From a virus (Duplodnaviria; Heunggongvirae; Uroviricota; Caudoviricetes): DNA of 8,282 nucleotides. Made by a program: the position numbers and the translations under genes. The notes beneath the pieces are model-generated. The model saw nothing but the letters and a program-made list of their open reading frames with translations, did not search any database and was not told where the DNA came from. Location: IMG/VR virus record IMGVR_UViG_2724678985_000018; one strand, written 5' to 3'. Position 1 is the first letter of the stretch; each line of letters begins with the position of its first letter. Below are positions 86 through 8,188 of this stretch, piece by piece.

Positions 86-511
86 ATGGAATTACAGGAC
101 TGGCGAAAAGAACCTCGTAAAAACTATTCGAATGAATTCAAACTTCGTATGGTGGAACTGGCATCACAACCTGGAGCTTGTGTTGCACAGATTGCACGTG
201 AAAATGGCGTCAATGATAATGTTATTTTCAAATGGCTCAGGCTCTGGCAGAACGAAGGGCGTGTTTCGCGGCGTCTTCCGGTAACGACCTCTTCTGACAC
301 TGGCGTTGAATTATTACCTGTAGAAATAACGCCGGATGAGCAGAAAGAACCTGTGGCGGCCATTGCGCCGTCTTTATCCACTTCCACTCAGACCAGAGTC
401 AGTGCCAGTTCCTGCAAGGTGGAATTCCGTCACGGTAACATGACGCTGGAAAATCCATCGCCAGAGCTGCTCACGGTGTTGATCCGTGAACTGACCGGGA
501 GGGGAAGATGA
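86..511 (+). CDS. tnpA: IS66-family accessory protein OrfA (helix-turn-helix)
   Basis: 141 aa. N-terminal NYSNEFKLRMVELASQPGACVAQIARENGVNDNVIFKWL is the typical IS66 Orf1 helix-turn-helix segment. Stop overlaps the orfB start (ATGA). Confidence 0.85.
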   Translation: MELQDWRKEPRKNYSNEFKLRMVELASQPGACVAQIARENGVNDNVIFKWLRLWQNEGRVSRRLPVTTSSDTGVELLPVEITPDEQKEPVAAIAPSLSTSTQTRVSASSCKVEFRHGNMTLENPSPELLTVLIRELTGRGR

Positions 512-858
512 TCTCACTCCCATCAGGTACCCGTATCTGGCTCGTTGCCGGCGTTACCGATATGCGTAAATCCTTCAACGGACTGGGAGAACAGGTACAA
601 CATGTGCTGAATGATAATCCCTTCTCCGGTCACCTGTTTATCTTCCGTGGCCGACGGGGTGACACCGTCAAAATTCTTTGGGCTGATGCTGATGGTCTGT
701 GCCTGTTCACCAAACGCCTGGAGGAAGGCCAGTTTATCTGGCCTGCGGTACGTGACGGCAAGGTATCCATTACCCGCTCGCAACTGGCAATGCTCCTCGA
801 TAAGCTGGACTGGCGTCAGCCAAAAACATCCAGCCGTAACTCACTGACAATGTTGTAA
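508..858 (+). CDS. tnpB: IS66-family accessory protein OrfB (TnpB of IS66; unrelated to the IS200/IS605 RNA-guided TnpB)
   Basis: 116 aa starting MISLPSGTRIWLVAGVTDMRKSFNGLGEQV...HLFIFRGRRGDTVKILWADADGLCLFTKRLEEGQFIWP, the highly conserved IS66 Orf2 signature. Start is coupled to the orfA stop. Confidence 0.92.
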   Translation: MISLPSGTRIWLVAGVTDMRKSFNGLGEQVQHVLNDNPFSGHLFIFRGRRGDTVKILWADADGLCLFTKRLEEGQFIWPAVRDGKVSITRSQLAMLLDKLDWRQPKTSSRNSLTML

Positions 859-888
859 AAAACTCCTGACCGCATTATAAAAACGGTC

Positions 889-2502
889 ATGAGTCAGAAA
901 TACCTCATTCGCATCGCAGAGCTGGAAAGGTTGCTCTCTGAGCAGGCTGAAGCCCTCCGTCAGAAAGACCAGCAACTGAGTCTGGTTGAAGAGACGGAAG
1001 CCTTCCTGCGCTCTGCACTGACACGTGCCGAAGAAAAGATCGAAGAAGATGAACGGGAAATAGAACATCTGCGGGCTCAGATAGAAAAACTGCGCCGGAT
1101 GCTGTTCGGTACCCGTTCTGAAAAACTGCGTCGTGAAGTTGAACTGGCTGAGGCTCTGCTGAAACAACGTGAACAGGACAGCGATCGTTACAGTGGGCGG
1201 GAAGACGATCCTCAGGTTCCCCGCCAGTTGCGACAGTCGCGCCATCGTCGTCCGTTACCGGCACACCTTCCCCGTGAAATACACCGCCTGGAGCCAGAAG
1301 AAAGCTGTTGCCCGGAGTGTGGCGGTGAGCTGGATTATCTGGGAGAAGTCAGCGCTGAACAGCTGGAACTGGTGAGCAGTGCCCTGAAAGTGATCCGCAC
1401 AGAACGGGTAAAAAAAGCCTGTACAAAATGTGACTGTATTGTTGAAGCACCGGCGCCGTCCCGCCCGATAGAGCGTGGTATCGCGGGCCCCGGATTACTT
1501 GCCCGCGTGTTAACGGGAAAATACTGCGAACATCTGCCACTGTATCGTCAGAGTGAAATCTTTGCCCGCCAGGGTGTCGAACTGAGCCGGGCCTTACTCT
1601 CCAACTGGGTTGACGCGTGCTGCCAGTTAATGACACCGGTGAATGATGCCCTGTACCGTTATGTGATGAATACCCGCAAGCTTCACACTGACGACACACC
1701 GGTAAAGGTACTGGCACCGGGCCTGAAAAAGACGAAAACAGGGCGCATCTGGACGTATGTCCGGGATGATCGCAATGCGGGTTCGTCATCTCCTCCGGCG
1801 GTCTGGTTCGCGTACTCATCGAACCGGCAGGGGAAACACCCGGAGCAACACCTCCGCCCCTTCCGGGGTATCCTGCAGGCGGATGCGTTCACAGGTTATG
1901 ACAGGCTGTTCAGTGCAGAACGTGAAGGTAGTGCGCTGACAGAAGTTGCGTGCTGGGCTCATGCCCGGAGAAAAATCCACGATGTATACATCAGCAGCAA
2001 AAGTGCGACGGCAGAAGAAGCCCTGAAGCGAATCAGTGAACTGTACGCCATCGAGGATGAAATACGGGGATTACCAGAATCAGAGCGTCTTGCAGCCAGG
2101 CAGCAGCGAAGCAAAGCGTTACTGACGTCGCTGCATGAATGGATGGTGGAGAAGAATGGCACGCTGTCGAAAAAATCCAGACTGGGCGAAGCGTTCAGCT
2201 ATGTACTGAATCAGTGGGACGCCCTCTGTTATTACAGTGATGACGGTCTGGCGGAGGTGGACAATAACACAGCGGAAAGAGCGCTTCGTGCAGTCTGTCT
2301 CGGAAAGAAAAATTACGTGTTCTTCGGTAGCGATCACGGCGGCGAGCGTGGAGCACTGCTGTACGGGCTGAGCGGCACCTGCCGTCTGAACGGTATCGAT
2401 CCGGAAGCGTATCTGCGCCATATTCTGAGCGTACTGCCGGAATGGCCCTCCAACCGTGTTGACGAACTCCTGCCATGGAACGTAGTACTCACCAATAAAT
2501 AA
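889..2502 (+). CDS. tnpC: IS66-family transposase (TnpC; DDE type with N-terminal coiled coil and zinc-finger-like CxxC...CxxC)
   Basis: 537 aa. N-terminal heptad-rich region (LERLLSEQAEALRQKDQQL...IEHLRAQIEKLRRMLFG), then CPECGGEL...CTKCDC, then a large catalytic region. Size and architecture match IS66 transposases. Confidence 0.92.
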   Translation: MSQKYLIRIAELERLLSEQAEALRQKDQQLSLVEETEAFLRSALTRAEEKIEEDEREIEHLRAQIEKLRRMLFGTRSEKLRREVELAEALLKQREQDSDRYSGREDDPQVPRQLRQSRHRRPLPAHLPREIHRLEPEESCCPECGGELDYLGEVSAEQLELVSSALKVIRTERVKKACTKCDCIVEAPAPSRPIERGIAGPGLLARVLTGKYCEHLPLYRQSEIFARQGVELSRALLSNWVDACCQLMTPVNDALYRYVMNTRKLHTDDTPVKVLAPGLKKTKTGRIWTYVRDDRNAGSSSPPAVWFAYSSNRQGKHPEQHLRPFRGILQADAFTGYDRLFSAEREGSALTEVACWAHARRKIHDVYISSKSATAEEALKRISELYAIEDEIRGLPESERLAARQQRSKALLTSLHEWMVEKNGTLSKKSRLGEAFSYVLNQWDALCYYSDDGLAEVDNNTAERALRAVCLGKKNYVFFGSDHGGERGALLYGLSGTCRLNGIDPEAYLRHILSVLPEWPSNRVDELLPWNVVLTNK

Positions 2503-2707: not shown

Positions 2708-2784
2708 TGGCGCGTTGTAGTGGAGTCTAACCACTGACCGATTGCTTAGAAGGCAATTGCTCTGTCCGACTGAGCTAACAACGC
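2708..2784 (-). tRNA. tRNA-Arg (anticodon TCT)
   Basis: Manual cloverleaf from the reverse complement: GCGTTGT-TA-GCTC-AGTCGGACA-GAGC-A-ATTGC-CTTCTAA-GCAAT-CGGTC-AGTGG-TTAGACT-CCACT-ACAACGC-G-CCA. All four stems pair perfectly, CCA is encoded. The T-loop TTAGACT is non-canonical. Confidence 0.75.
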
Positions 2785-2797
2785 ATGATGCTGATAA

Positions 2798-2874
2798 TGG
2801 ACCGCCATCGGGGACTTGAACCCCGCGCAGCCAGCTTCGAAGGCTGGCGCTCTGTCCCGATGAGCTAATAGCGG
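2798..2874 (-). tRNA. tRNA-Arg (anticodon TCG), atypical acceptor end
   Basis: Manual cloverleaf: CCGCTAT-TA-GCTC-ATCGGGACA-GAGC-G-CCAGC-CTTCGAA-GCTGG-CTGCG-CGGGG-TTCAAGT-CCCCG-ATGGCGG-T-CCA. Canonical T-loop and perfect D, anticodon and T stems. Acceptor stem starts C1-G72 with a T at the discriminator position, both unusual. Confidence 0.6.
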
Positions 2875-2883
2875 TATGTAATA

Positions 2884-2959
2884 TGGTGGCCCTTGCTGGA
2901 TTTGAACCAGCGACCTGGCGATTATGAGTCGCTCGCTCTCACCACTGAGCTAAAGGACC
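2884..2959 (-). tRNA. tRNA with CAT anticodon, most likely tRNA-Ile2 (lysidine type) rather than Met
   Basis: Manual cloverleaf: GGTCCTT-TA-GCTC-AGTGGTGA-GAGC-G-AGCGA-CTCATAA-TCGCC-AGGTC-GCTGG-TTCAAAT-CCAGC-AAGGGCC-A-CCA. Closely resembles the E. coli ileX/ileY tRNA as I recall it, differing in acceptor and anticodon stems. One A-C mismatch at the base of the anticodon stem. Confidence 0.75.
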
Positions 2960-2987: not shown

Positions 2988-3701
2988 TCAATAATCAAGC
3001 CCTTGCCTGGATACATATCTGTCTGGCGGGAAGCCATAATAGCGGTGAAATACAGAAATAAAGTAGGACCTGCTTGAATAACCGCATTTTTCTGCTATAG
3101 CCTGTCCATATCCATGCCGGGAACATAACATATTTACAGCAACACGCATCCGCTCTTCCAGCAACAAGCGACTGAACATGCCCCCTTCATTTTTCAGTTT
3201 TGTCTTTAACAAACTCTCACTCATATGCAACTGTAGAGCAATCGCACCAAGCGTCCAGCTTGCTGATATATCTGTCTGAATTATCGCCCTGACTTTGGCA
3301 CTTATGCTGGATAAACATCCACTTAAAAACAATGACATCCGTTCATCTGTTTCAAACAGAGACAGGCAGGCCATCATAAGAAACATATCCGTGACCTCTC
3401 CGGAAAATCCCTGGCTGGTAATTAAAGCCGCAGCCAACGCAGGATTGTTGGGTTCCAGCAACAGGTAAAGCGGAATGTCAGTCAGACGAGTCCTCGTCAG
3501 CTTATGCTGACTTTCCAGATATTGACTTACGACGGATTCGCTTATATCGACAATTTTAACTTTGCCATAATGCATAAGGAAAAGCTCCCTGATGCATTTG
3601 GTGGCCAGAACGACTGAGCCTGGCTTAAGTGACAACGTATCCTTTTCAAGAAAAATATTAATTGGGGAGCAAACCATGATAACTGAACAGACAACAGCCA
3701 T
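2988..3701 (-). CDS. AraC/XylS-family transcriptional regulator (C-terminal double helix-turn-helix, N-terminal domain without a recognisable cupin)
   Basis: 237 aa. C-terminal WTLGAIALQLHMSESLLKTKLKNEGGMFSRLLLEERMRVAVNMLCSRHGYGQAIAEKCGYSSRSYFISVFHRYYGFPPDRY is a textbook AraC helix-turn-helix domain. Locus is visibly AT-rich compared with its flanks. True start may be the second Met (ATG at 3677). Confidence 0.8.
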   Translation of the reverse strand: MAVVCSVIMVCSPINIFLEKDTLSLKPGSVVLATKCIRELFLMHYGKVKIVDISESVVSQYLESQHKLTRTRLTDIPLYLLLEPNNPALAAALITSQGFSGEVTDMFLMMACLSLFETDERMSLFLSGCLSSISAKVRAIIQTDISASWTLGAIALQLHMSESLLKTKLKNEGGMFSRLLLEERMRVAVNMLCSRHGYGQAIAEKCGYSSRSYFISVFHRYYGFPPDRYVSRQGLDY

Positions 3702-6636: not shown

Positions 6637-6981
6637 TTACTTTAATAATTTCAGTGCCTTTACATCAACTTCAACACTGCTCAGGTCTTTATCAATTTCA
6701 CCCTCAATTCTTACTTTGTCTTTCGGAGAAACATTCTGCCCGGCCCATACGCTGTCATCAATATCCGTGACAATTGTCCCGCTATTGTCACGAAACTCAT
6801 AACGTTCATCACCCACTTTTTTAACGATGCTCCCTTCAAGGATAACCCATGCATCATCCTTCAGTTCTTTTGCCTGCGCTACTGTTGAACGCTCTGCTTC
6901 TGGCCCCTGGAAACCACCCTGCTGTGCAAAAGCGCCAAAAGACACACCGGAAATAAGTGCTGCAATCAATACCTTTTTCAT
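6637..6981 (-). CDS. YgiW/YdeI-family (BOF, DUF388) periplasmic OB-fold protein with signal peptide
   Basis: 114 aa. N-terminal MKKVLIAALISGVSFGAFA looks like a signal peptide. The mature region (QQGGFQGP...DDAWVILEGSIVKKVGDERYEFRDNSGTIVTDIDDSVWAGQNVSPKDKVRIEGEIDKD...VEVDVK) follows the YgiW/YdeI pattern. AAAGAGGA ribosome-binding site upstream. Confidence 0.75.
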   Translation of the reverse strand: MKKVLIAALISGVSFGAFAQQGGFQGPEAERSTVAQAKELKDDAWVILEGSIVKKVGDERYEFRDNSGTIVTDIDDSVWAGQNVSPKDKVRIEGEIDKDLSSVEVDVKALKLLK

Positions 6982-7059
6982 TCATAGTCCTCTTTCAGAG
7001 ATGAACATTCAAACAGCATTTTCAGTATGGTAAAGCGCGGGTGCGTTGAGGATGCCTGA

Positions 7060-7100
7060 CACATCAGAGGTGGCGGGAGATTACTCCCCCGCCTGGTCTC
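7060..7100 (-). other. GC-rich stem-loop at the 3' end of the hok transcript
   Basis: Minus strand GGCGGGGGAG-TAAT-CTCCCGCC starting 8 nt after the hok stop. Not followed by a clean U-tract. Analogous in position to the 3' hairpin of plasmid R1 hok mRNA as I recall it. Confidence 0.4.
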
Positions 7101-7256
7101 TTACTTCTCAGATTCGTAGTCTACGAAGACAGCGACCTCCGTCTGACCGGTTCGGATTCGCACCTCGCAGAGGTCTTTCCTCGTTACCAGTGCCGTCACT
7201 ATGACGGTTAAACAGATGACGATCAGGGCGATTAACATCGCCTTTTGCTGCTTCAT
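7101..7256 (-). CDS. hok: Hok/Gef-family type I toxin (membrane peptide, 51 aa)
   Basis: MKQQKAMLIALIVICLTVIVTALVTRKDLCEVRIRTGQTEVAVFVDYESEK is near-identical to E. coli HokD/RelF-type sequences as I recall them. GGAG ribosome-binding site upstream. The six-frame track extends this frame to an upstream ATG at 7313 (70 aa), but the conserved Hok start is the internal Met. Confidence 0.9.
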   Translation of the reverse strand: MKQQKAMLIALIVICLTVIVTALVTRKDLCEVRIRTGQTEVAVFVDYESEK

Positions 7257-7440
7257 AGCCTGCTTCTCCTTGCCTTTCGGCACGTAAGAGGCTAACCTAC
7301 ATGTGTTCAGCATGGATTGAGCCTCAGATTAATGTTAAGCGTCTTGCAGGACGCGTAATGTTAACTGGGGCTTTTCTCTATCTGCCGTTGGTGTTCATGC
7401 CCGAGGCAGATAGCCTCAAGCACCCGCTGCAATTCTACTT
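7257..7440 (-). promoter_or_regulatory. hok mRNA leader (expected to contain the mok start region and the Sok antisense-RNA target; sok would be encoded on the + strand here)
   Basis: Minus strand contains GCTTGAGGCTATCTGCCTC and TAGCCTCTTACGTGCCGAAAGGCAAGGAGAAGCAGGCTATG, which resemble the 5' end and the region just upstream of the start codon of plasmid R1 hok mRNA as I recall them. Candidate -10 TAGAAT just upstream of the presumed 5' end. Exact sok coordinates not determined. Confidence 0.45.
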
Positions 7441-7546
7441 AACTATCCTTTTCCCGCAAACCGTTTTTATCCCCAGCGGCAAATCGAATACTCCACCAGC
7501 GCCACCGCCATCGCAATTCCTACCGTTGTGAATGCTTCAGGCCAGG

Positions 7547-8188
7547 TCATTGATTCACCTCCTGCGGCGGTTCTGGTAGCGACATCCAGTGGGTTGCTTG
7601 CCTAAGATCATTACCCGGACTAACTGCTATACCTCCGCGCCGGAACGTGCCTCCGAGATAGCGTGCGGAATATATTAATGGCCCAGCCTCGCTATCGATA
7701 TTCATCGAAATAAGCACGTTCTGGCTCTTTTCAGGCATTCGCTCAGTACAGCTTATCCAGCCATCCAGAGTTATCGGAGATCTGGTTGACGTTTCCGAGA
7801 TTTCCCGAAAATTGTTGGTTGACGAATTCTTATTTTCCCGAAAGTTTCCGGCCTGAAGCATGGCGACGCGGCAGGCGTTCCAGCCATCAGCATATGTTTT
7901 AGTTACACCGTCGAGATGGCAGGTAAGCAAATCCATTTCATCAGGCACTACCATTGCTATCGGCTCTGCTTCCAGTGATGCCAGCGCGATACGAAACACA
8001 TTAGCCAGCAGGCTGTCTGAAGACTTGTTATCGTGCGCCGAGTCGCTCAGGAAGCCTGTGATGTATGATTTAATCTCCGCGCGTTCTCTGGTAATAGTGC
8101 TCATATCAGTTTGAACCGCCCAGGGTGTCCTGGAGAGTGTTTTATCTGTGAAATCAGGCTGCCAGATCATCGTTTCCGATGGAAGCAT
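7547..8188 (-). CDS. Phage protein with C-terminal DUF551-like domain
   Basis: 213 aa. C-terminus WISCTERMPEKSQNVLISMNIDSEAGPLIYSARYLGGTFRRGGIAVSPGNDLRQATHWMSLPEPP fits the DUF551 pattern (W...LP...HWM.LPEPP) as I recall it. Contains an internal repeat NFRENKNSSTNNFREISE. No clear Shine-Dalgarno before the first ATG; the start could be Met-7. Confidence 0.5.
   Translation of the reverse strand: MLPSETMIWQPDFTDKTLSRTPWAVQTDMSTITRERAEIKSYITGFLSDSAHDNKSSDSLLANVFRIALASLEAEPIAMVVPDEMDLLTCHLDGVTKTYADGWNACRVAMLQAGNFRENKNSSTNNFREISETSTRSPITLDGWISCTERMPEKSQNVLISMNIDSEAGPLIYSARYLGGTFRRGGIAVSPGNDLRQATHWMSLPEPPQEVNQ

Follow-up and report, generated by a model that had tools for sequence, protein, structure and literature searches.

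The window analysed here, the whole 8,282-nt stretch of DNA, carries an intact hokW/mokW/sokW type I toxin-antitoxin module of a lambdoid prophage that follows the standard hok/sok control scheme, a reading to which we give a probability of roughly 0.9. Two nested ORFs homologous to known Hok and Mok proteins, a covarying tac-fbi pairing, and a Sok RNA with its own promoter on the opposite strand were located (Table 1). The module is intact, unremarkable within its family, and already known: in GenBank, the entries for 933W and VT2-Sakai annotate the locus together with its in-frame mok and its Sok. An in-frame mok is what this clade normally has, and it affects nothing but the Mok product, which becomes a Hok extended by 19 residues at the N-terminus in place of an unrelated peptide.

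Hok toxin and leader of the module

The ORF list contains a 51-codon Hok ORF (MKQQKAML...YESEK) on the minus strand, which encodes a protein identical to HokW of 933W. The longer, 70-aa product of the same frame matches the full-length Pfam profile HOK_GEF (PF01848) with its residues 25-66 (E 1e-22; 79.8 bits against a cut-off of 22). The leader, from 7425 to 7251 on the minus strand, matches the Rfam model RF01794 over model positions 1-157 of 157, with 113.5 bits (gathering score 59) and an E-value of 6e-26. The full-model Rfam match and the HOK_GEF domain bear out the proposal of the first-pass annotation that this is a hok/sok-type type I toxin-antitoxin locus. Its further proposal, that the leader is homologous to that of R1 hok, is upheld by the RF01794 match and by the blocks that the window and an R1-type leader have in common in alignment A3. 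These blocks are the 5' end GG(G/C)(T)GCTTGAGGC, the block AGCCTCTTAC, and the block AAGGAGAAG. The span first given for the locus, 7060-7440, does lie over the module, but it is too narrow, as the fbi element (7052-7039) and the hok promoter, which reaches to about 7459, fall outside it.

Table 1. Features of the hokW/mokW/sokW module and their positions in the window
Feature	Position	Strand	Description and evidence
Putative hok/mok promoter	7432..7459	-	-35 TTGCGG (7459-7454), 16-nt spacer, -10 TAGAAT (7437-7432); read from the sequence
hok (mokW/hokW) mRNA, about 390 nt	7036..7425	-	5' end G7425 is the start of the RF01794 match; 3' end approximate, after fbi
tac element	7414..7425	-	5'-terminal GGGUGCUUGAGG; MFE partners 7039-7051, P(unpaired) = 0.00
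mok Shine-Dalgarno	7322..7325	-	GAGG; paired in a conserved hairpin of the Rfam model; clade entropy 0.03 bits
mokW ORF	7101..7313	-	70 codons, in frame with hokW, stop in common; ORF list; annotated in AF125520.1 and AP000422.1
hok Shine-Dalgarno	7266..7271	-	AAGGAG; CAAGGAGAA invariant in 92/92 aligned loci, owed in part to the search pattern that collected them
hokW ORF	7101..7256	-	51 codons, membrane toxin; Pfam; protein identical to 933W HokW
3' stem-loop	7072..7093	-	GGCGGGGGAG-UAAU-CUCCCGCC, just past the hok stop; nine MFE pairs; conserved in A3
fbi (fold-back inhibition) element	7039..7052	-	UCCUCAACGCACCC; pairs with 7425-7414; about 50-60 nt past the stop codon
Sok promoter	7270..7298	+	-35 TTGCCT (7270-7275), 17-nt spacer, -10 TAACCT (7293-7298); inside mok codons 6-15
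sokW RNA, about 71-75 nt	7305..~7375-7379	+	+1 is G7305; sokW misc_RNA of 933W/VT2-Sakai maps to 7305-7375
sokW 5' tail	7305..7318	+	14 nt, single-stranded
sokW hairpin	7319..7373	+	long, imperfect
sokW U-run	7372..7379	+	UUUUCUCU

Prophage context and closest relatives

The window covers the nin/Q region of a lambdoid prophage. Along the minus strand, the gene order is DUF551, a 27-aa hydrophobic ORF, the hok locus, YgiW/BOF, DUF968, RusA, the Q antiterminator, an AraC-family regulator, three tRNAs, and an IS66-family element. A total of 45 complete E. coli genomes, O111 strains included, contain a single match covering at least 80% of the window. In the O111 strains among these genomes, the element after the tRNA cluster is annotated as ISEc47 (IS66-like).

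A 411-nt query from the locus shares 99.0% identity with 933W and VT2-Sakai (Sp5), and 100% identity with prophage copies in several E. coli chromosomes. The records of 933W (AF125520.1) and VT2-Sakai (AP000422.1) annotate a 213-nt mokW and a 156-nt hokW, together with a 71-nt sokW misc_RNA on the opposite strand. Both Hok and Mok are identical to those of the window, and the in-frame mok, the Sok promoter, the Sok start and the Sok tail are the same. The neighbours are also shared, with the DUF551 gene upstream and the YgiW/BOF gene downstream. Only two bases of the mRNA differ, neither of them in a known element. The first, at 7348, falls within the Sok hairpin, in its apical loop; the second (about 7092-7094, G versus A) lies at the base of the 3' hairpin and adds one base pair. 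Two more differences lie in the hok promoter region. While 933W and Sp5 are Stx2 phages, the host of the window is a different lambdoid prophage, and there is no stx gene in the window. The RefSeq entry for an identical chromosomal copy gives only a 'Hok/Gef family protein', with mok and sok dropped; coordinates of all elements are now supplied in Table 1.

The upstream in-frame start codon

The first-pass annotation had noted an ATG at 7313 that opens a 70-codon frame through hok, and the ORF list agrees. The 70-aa ORF at 7313..7101 (minus strand) consists of MLNTCRLASYVPKGKEKQA followed by MKQQKAML...YESEK, with the hok ATG 19 codons downstream in the same frame. The upstream ATG lies 57 nt before the hok AUG, behind GAGG, and frame -1 of the window leader has no start codon. 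The ORF thus has its own Shine-Dalgarno sequence and a start upstream of hok, and its reading frame spans hok from start to stop. Judged by sequence, the ATG at 7313 is a real and functional-looking start codon and not a novel one, and what had been described as an N-terminally extended Hok corresponds to the annotated MokW.

The same arrangement is seen in K-12 mokC/hokC (gef). There, mokC is in frame with hokC and has its stop in common, and its ATG is at -57, giving 69 codons versus 70 in the window. K-12 HokC shares 80% amino acid identity with the window Hok. Frame -1 is closed early in K-12 hokC, whereas it is open across hok in the window.

As the reference for the hok/mok/sok locus (parB) of plasmid R1, the IncF sequence of pAPEC-O2-R (L010) was used, and not R1's own record. 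The sequence that we take to be the R1 hok mRNA is found with 100% identity, over 332 nt, in many IncF plasmids, and R1 Mok is presumably of 70 codons, which supports the 'R1-type' label of L010. Upstream of hok, L010 offers a single start, an ATG at -58; the Mok read from it lies in frame -1, has 70 codons, and terminates 4 nt short of the hok stop. In the window, by contrast, the ATG is at -57 and in frame; the window belongs to the mokC/mokW geometry, not to the R1 geometry. The R1-type locus and the window are alike in the order and spacing of tac, the mok Shine-Dalgarno and ATG, the Sok promoter block AGCCTCTTAC, the hok Shine-Dalgarno and ATG, the 3' hairpin, and fbi. The -35 and -10 of the R1-type Sok are at positions homologous to those of the window. 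The R1-type Hok is only 41% identical to that of the window, and its tac/fbi reads GGCGC/GCGCC versus GGGUGC/GCACCC in the window.

Reading frames of mok across hok loci

A survey of hok loci was performed with sequences from IMG/VR and from a DNA pattern scan of one genome per species. All were filtered with a Hok HMM, which removed the many chance matches of the pattern scan in unrelated phyla. Among the 89 distinct leader-plus-hok sequences that were classified, mok is in frame in 55 (mostly with the ATG at -57; 19 in the species-diverse subset), in frame -1 in 21 (ATG at -58 and, in most cases, an end 4-7 nt short of the hok stop; 14 in the subset), limited to 19-20 codons with a stop overlapping the hok AUG (AUGA) in 6 (3 in the subset), and lacking an ATG in 7 (5 in the subset); these sequences are related and their sampling is biased, so that the counts describe the sample and not frequencies. 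A mok ATG 4-12 nt after GAGG, at -56 to -60 (at -51 in two loci), was found in 82/89 distinct loci. The position of the mok ATG is conserved, its frame relative to hok is not, and the in-frame arrangement is common.

Individual loci illustrate this variation. Most other E. coli have full-length hokD-type loci with mok in frame, as in UM146 and CB6837. On an IncFII plasmid, locus L005 encodes a Hok protein identical to that of R1, and a single-nucleotide difference puts its mok in frame. K-12 mokB is annotated out of frame, and the K-12 mokA pseudogene shares its stop with hokA and is in frame. The statement of the first-pass annotation that mok is classically out of frame is therefore right for the R1-type sequence, and for K-12 mokB as annotated, but it is not a family rule.

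Functionless chance was considered as an origin of the upstream ATG. Short upstream in-frame ATGs are common, and mok varies in its frame relative to hok, as noted above. Conservation of the start itself, however, effectively refutes this explanation. The GAGG-ATG position is kept in 82 of the 89 loci, the entropy of the ATG is 0.16 bits between hypervariable patches of about 0.95 bits, and Sok covers exactly the mok start site. The suggestion that the in-frame ATG is coincidental, or a sign of a different translational control, is not supported in view of the annotated mokW, the K-12 mokC geometry and the conserved mok position. Nor is an unusual organisation supported, since the in-frame arrangement is the commonest in the sample and R1 differs by one nucleotide of spacing. 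Alignment and survey did not reveal a frame-shifted mok with an unconserved upstream ATG at this locus; the ATG is conserved.

The 70-aa extended Hok might also be the main or only translated toxin, with the internal hok AUG unused as a separate start. Since mok is in frame with hok, every ribosome starting at 7313 makes the whole Hok domain. In the functional study of the Sp5 copy, which shares 99% identity with the window (Takada et al., 2021; PMC8621323), the HokW-3FLAG western blot would pick up either product, and the text does not give the number of bands. We regard this alternative as improbable on several grounds. A separate AAGGAG Shine-Dalgarno sequence precedes the hok AUG; it is invariant in the 92 aligned loci, with the qualification on the search pattern given in Table 1. 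Four very close relatives with the same Hok (L029, L058, L071, and L080) have mok either in frame -1 or ending on the hok AUG, an arrangement that requires internal initiation of Hok in these loci. Furthermore, expression of nothing but the 51-codon hokW ORF, from pBAD24, is toxic (PMC8621323), and K-12 mokC/hokC are annotated with the same in-frame geometry.

Of the 55 in-frame loci, 39, the window among them, retain a frame -1 that runs open through hok for 49-51 codons, which fits recent or repeated frame switching. Within the clade of hokW-, hokD- and hokC-like loci, variation is concentrated in two patches around the mok AUG, at 7321-7314 (0.93 bits) and 7310-7299 (0.99 bits). Elsewhere the clade entropy is at most 0.28 bits, with 0.24 in the hok CDS and 0.16 at the mok ATG itself. 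The Sok 5' tail is directed at these hypervariable patches, with 24 different targets in 62 clade loci, and the indels that switch the frame fall in the patches flanking the mok AUG.

It is possible, though we hold it somewhat doubtful, that the mok frame is labile, with the in-frame fusion, the long frame -1 form and the 19-20-codon AUGA form interconverting between near-identical loci, and that the patch bound by the Sok tail diversifies against cross-talk of co-resident copies. If this is true, in-frame loci, that of the window included, would make a 70-aa Mok-Hok fusion, and the Mok peptide would be irrelevant, with only the passage of ribosomes mattering. The pattern of frame switching may not yet have been described systematically, because a 2026 preprint on Hok diversity left Mok out of its analysis, calling its identification "not trivial". 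As the survey shows, an out-of-frame mok holds for R1 and should not be taken as a rule for the family.

The hok mRNA and its fold-back structure

The -10 of the putative hok promoter is invariant in a five-sequence alignment of hokW/hokD loci (A2) and lies 7 nt upstream of the start of the Rfam match. The promoter was not called by the consensus scanner because its -35 is weak. The 3' end of the mRNA, near 7036, was placed by analogy with what we take to be the R1 mRNA; the YgiW-like gene follows at 6981. Neither a scan of 6950-7560 nor the alignment detected a terminator for the hok mRNA. In most hokD-type loci a AACCCGCTTCGGCGGGTTTT hairpin follows fbi, whereas the window and 933W are without it.

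The fold of 7425..7030 has an MFE of -162.6 kcal/mol (z = -7.1), and none of 100 shuffled sequences was as stable. In an alignment of 92 distinct loci, the 12-bp helix between tac and fbi is paired at 90.7%, versus 30-55% in slid controls. Compensatory changes support this helix, with U-A replaced by C-G in 17 sequences and G-C replaced by A-U in 9. The hairpin that sequesters the mok Shine-Dalgarno sequence is paired at 76.7% in the same alignment, versus 35-53% in controls. When the 3' end was truncated in silico, P(unpaired) changed from 0.08 to 0.36 at the mok AUG, from 0.25 to 0.22 at the mok Shine-Dalgarno, and from 0.67 to 0.45 at the hok Shine-Dalgarno. This model agrees only partly with the activation scheme of R1, as the mok AUG is freed but the mok Shine-Dalgarno is not, and the hok Shine-Dalgarno becomes less accessible.

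Sok antisense RNA and its promoter

The elements of Sok were placed by homology and with the help of published primers. The Sok +1 corresponds to nucleotide 9 of mok, the same position as that of sokC relative to mokC, and the predicted fold of the RNA is stable (-31.5 kcal/mol; z = -5.2). Sok covers the Shine-Dalgarno (7325-7322) and AUG (7313-7311) of mok but not the Shine-Dalgarno (7271-7266) or AUG (7256) of hok, and its control of Hok must therefore be indirect. The first-pass annotation correctly put Sok on the plus strand, but its range of 7260-7360 does not hold, as the RNA runs from 7305 to about 7375-7379 and only its promoter lies at 7270-7298. The promoter and terminator could not be placed at that stage because consensus scanning finds none in the region. 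A promoter and terminator scan of 6950-7560 on both strands returned no calls, and the Sok and hok promoters are both below its threshold.

The oligonucleotides of the Sp5 study (PMC8621323) map exactly to the window, except for one with 1 mismatch. The northern probe YO-592, which maps to 7334..7305, detects sokW RNA in Sp5 lysogens (PMC8621323). The primer for the promoter-less mutant, YO-421, changes TAACCTA to GAGCCGG at 7293-7299 of the plus strand, which is the predicted Sok -10, and its four substitutions are all synonymous in the mokW frame. In the sokW promoter mutant, antitoxin activity is lost, and growth is partly restored by sokW in trans (PMC8621323).

A 76-aa ORF at 7301-7531 of the plus strand was rejected as a gene. 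It overlaps the hok leader on the strand that encodes Sok, and in the R1-type leader, too, an ORF of this kind carries the annotation 'hypothetical protein' on the antisense strand.

Intactness of the locus relative to K-12 loci

Several chromosomal hok loci of K-12 are interrupted or rearranged. The Hok of hokD (relF), in the Qin prophage, has 47 of 51 residues identical to those of the window, and DNA identity of about 94% begins 14 nt before the hok ATG and continues downstream. The whole leader of this locus (tac, mok, and sok) is lost, and relBE lies upstream instead. In K-12 hokC, IS186 is located 20 nt past the stop, and the fbi region is lost.

The window locus could be a decayed and inactive copy of this kind. 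K-12 hokC, hokA and hokE are flanked by IS186 or IS150, K-12 hokD is without a leader, and the window itself carries an IS66-family element, though 4.5 kb distant. Such decay is nevertheless very improbable here. Both promoters, tac, the Shine-Dalgarno and ATG of mok and of hok, fbi, and the Sok hairpin are all uninterrupted, and the two mRNA differences from the functional Sp5 copy both lie outside known elements. The locus is thus best read as an intact module.

Function of the Sp5 copy and proposed control

Functional data come from the Sp5 copy. Sok transcribed from its own promoter protects against the toxin, with partial dependence on RNase III and Hfq (PMC8621323). Induction by mitomycin C or heat is followed by the loss of Sok and a build-up of HokW in the inner membrane (PMC8621323). 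Shorter hokW RNAs are visible on northern blots (PMC8621323). The name mokW does not occur in this report (PMC8621323).

Based on these elements, the module would work as follows. The weak promoter is expected to produce a stable mRNA of about 390 nt with the nested in-frame mokW (ATG 7313) and hokW (ATG 7256). In the full-length RNA, tac would pair with fbi to give a closed form that, by analogy with R1, is poorly translated. The plus-strand promoter within mok codons 6-15 would supply an unstable Sok, whose tail and hairpin are complementary to the mok Shine-Dalgarno and AUG. Sok would then act on Hok indirectly, by blocking mok translation and triggering cleavage by RNase III. As in R1, translation of mok and hok is presumed to be coupled, and activation would come about by 3' processing that removes fbi. 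Once Sok is lost, ribosomes may start at mok and cross the hok start region, so that Hok is made and inserted into the inner membrane.

In the Stx2 phage, hokW-sokW is reported to speed lysis and roughly double phage release, and deletion of the locus halves release (PMC8621323). Given this effect, intact copies in other STEC prophages may bear on phage spread.

Variation around the mok start codon

Two hypervariable patches, one on either side of the conserved mok AUG, were identified in alignment A3, which contains 92 distinct hok loci. Their variability is approximately 0.95 bits, compared with at most 0.28 bits in the rest of the locus. These patches lie in the same place as the region targeted by the 5' tail of Sok; a set of 62 closely related loci contains 24 distinct targets of this tail. 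In E. coli genomes that have any match, the number of matching places has a median of 2 and a maximum of 9. The patches flanking the mok AUG may be a specificity determinant that separates co-resident hok/sok copies.

Arrangement of mok relative to hok

Six distinct loci have a short mok of just 19 to 20 codons, whose stop codon overlaps the hok start codon (AUGA). The mok ATG is located at position -56 in four of them (L058, L059, L080, and L197) and at -59 in the other two (L103 and L110). Stop-start overlaps are an arrangement typical of termination-reinitiation, and the AUGA overlap is a third mok-hok coupling geometry, besides the in-frame and frame -1 arrangements. The IncF plasmid loci L005 (pMTY1886_IncFII) and L010 (pAPEC-O2-R) share one and the same R1-type Hok protein, but the patch that follows the mok ATG reads TCTGACAACATC in L005 and TCTAGTCCACATC in L010. 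Owing to this difference, mok shares the hok frame in one plasmid and is read in frame -1 in the second.

Frame -1 relative to hok is open for 49 codons over the hok coding sequence in the window, with no start codon in this open stretch, and is likewise open across hok in 39 of the 55 in-frame loci. The open frame is consistent with a mok frame that has switched recently or repeatedly, with shared ancestry as an alternative source.

Some loci have altered leaders in A3. L047, L110, L174, L197, and L158 have unrelated sequence instead of the 5' portion of the leader (tac, the 5' end of the hok mRNA, and the region upstream of it), and in L030, L163, L144, and L181 the mok ATG has become ACG, ATA, or a different non-start codon. 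Both sets are probably decayed copies, as in K-12.

Transcript end and database annotation

Most hokD-type prophage loci (L011/L012 and most of A3) carry a AACCCGCTTCGGCGGGTTTT terminator hairpin directly after the 3' fold-back element fbi, whereas this hairpin is missing from the window (7000-7040, minus strand) and from Stx2 phage 933W. No terminator was detectable in the window between hokW and the YgiW-like gene (ATG at 6981), and the hokW transcript may read through.

In current RefSeq/PGAP annotation, the identical chromosomal copy (L003; NZ_AP018808.1, 8195-8350) and other RefSeq records carry only a "Hok/Gef family protein", with neither mok nor sok annotated. In contrast, both are annotated in the older GenBank records of phages 933W and VT2-Sakai. 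In some phage records, the gene goes by "RelF inactive antibacterial toxin protein".

Prophage neighborhood

The tRNA trio in the window resembles the ileZ-argN-argO cluster of Stx phages, in which the CAT tRNA is likely of the Ile2 type. The IS66-family element, annotated as ISEc47 in matching genomes, directly follows the tRNA cluster in the orientation opposite to the prophage genes, at roughly the site of stx in Stx phages.

Features located in the window
Feature	Position	Strand	Description
IS66-family element	86-2502	+	HTH_Tnp_1 orf, TnpB_IS66 orf, 537-aa DDE_Tnp_IS66 transposase
Three tRNA genes	2708-2959	-	Met-CAT, Arg-TCG, Arg-TCT; downstream of Q antiterminator
AraC-family regulator	2988-3701	-	237 aa; between Q and tRNAs
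Q antiterminator	4823-4257		Upstream of tRNA cluster
Open frame -1	7257-7108	-	Over hok coding sequence
Hypervariable patches	7299-7321	-	Either side of mok AUG
27-codon ORF	7467-7550	-	MTWPEAFTTVGIAMAVALVEYSICRWG; hydrophobic peptide; just upstream of hok promoter

The ATG of the 27-codon ORF overlaps the stop codon of the DUF551 gene (ATGA). This ORF may encode a small membrane protein, or else be spurious.
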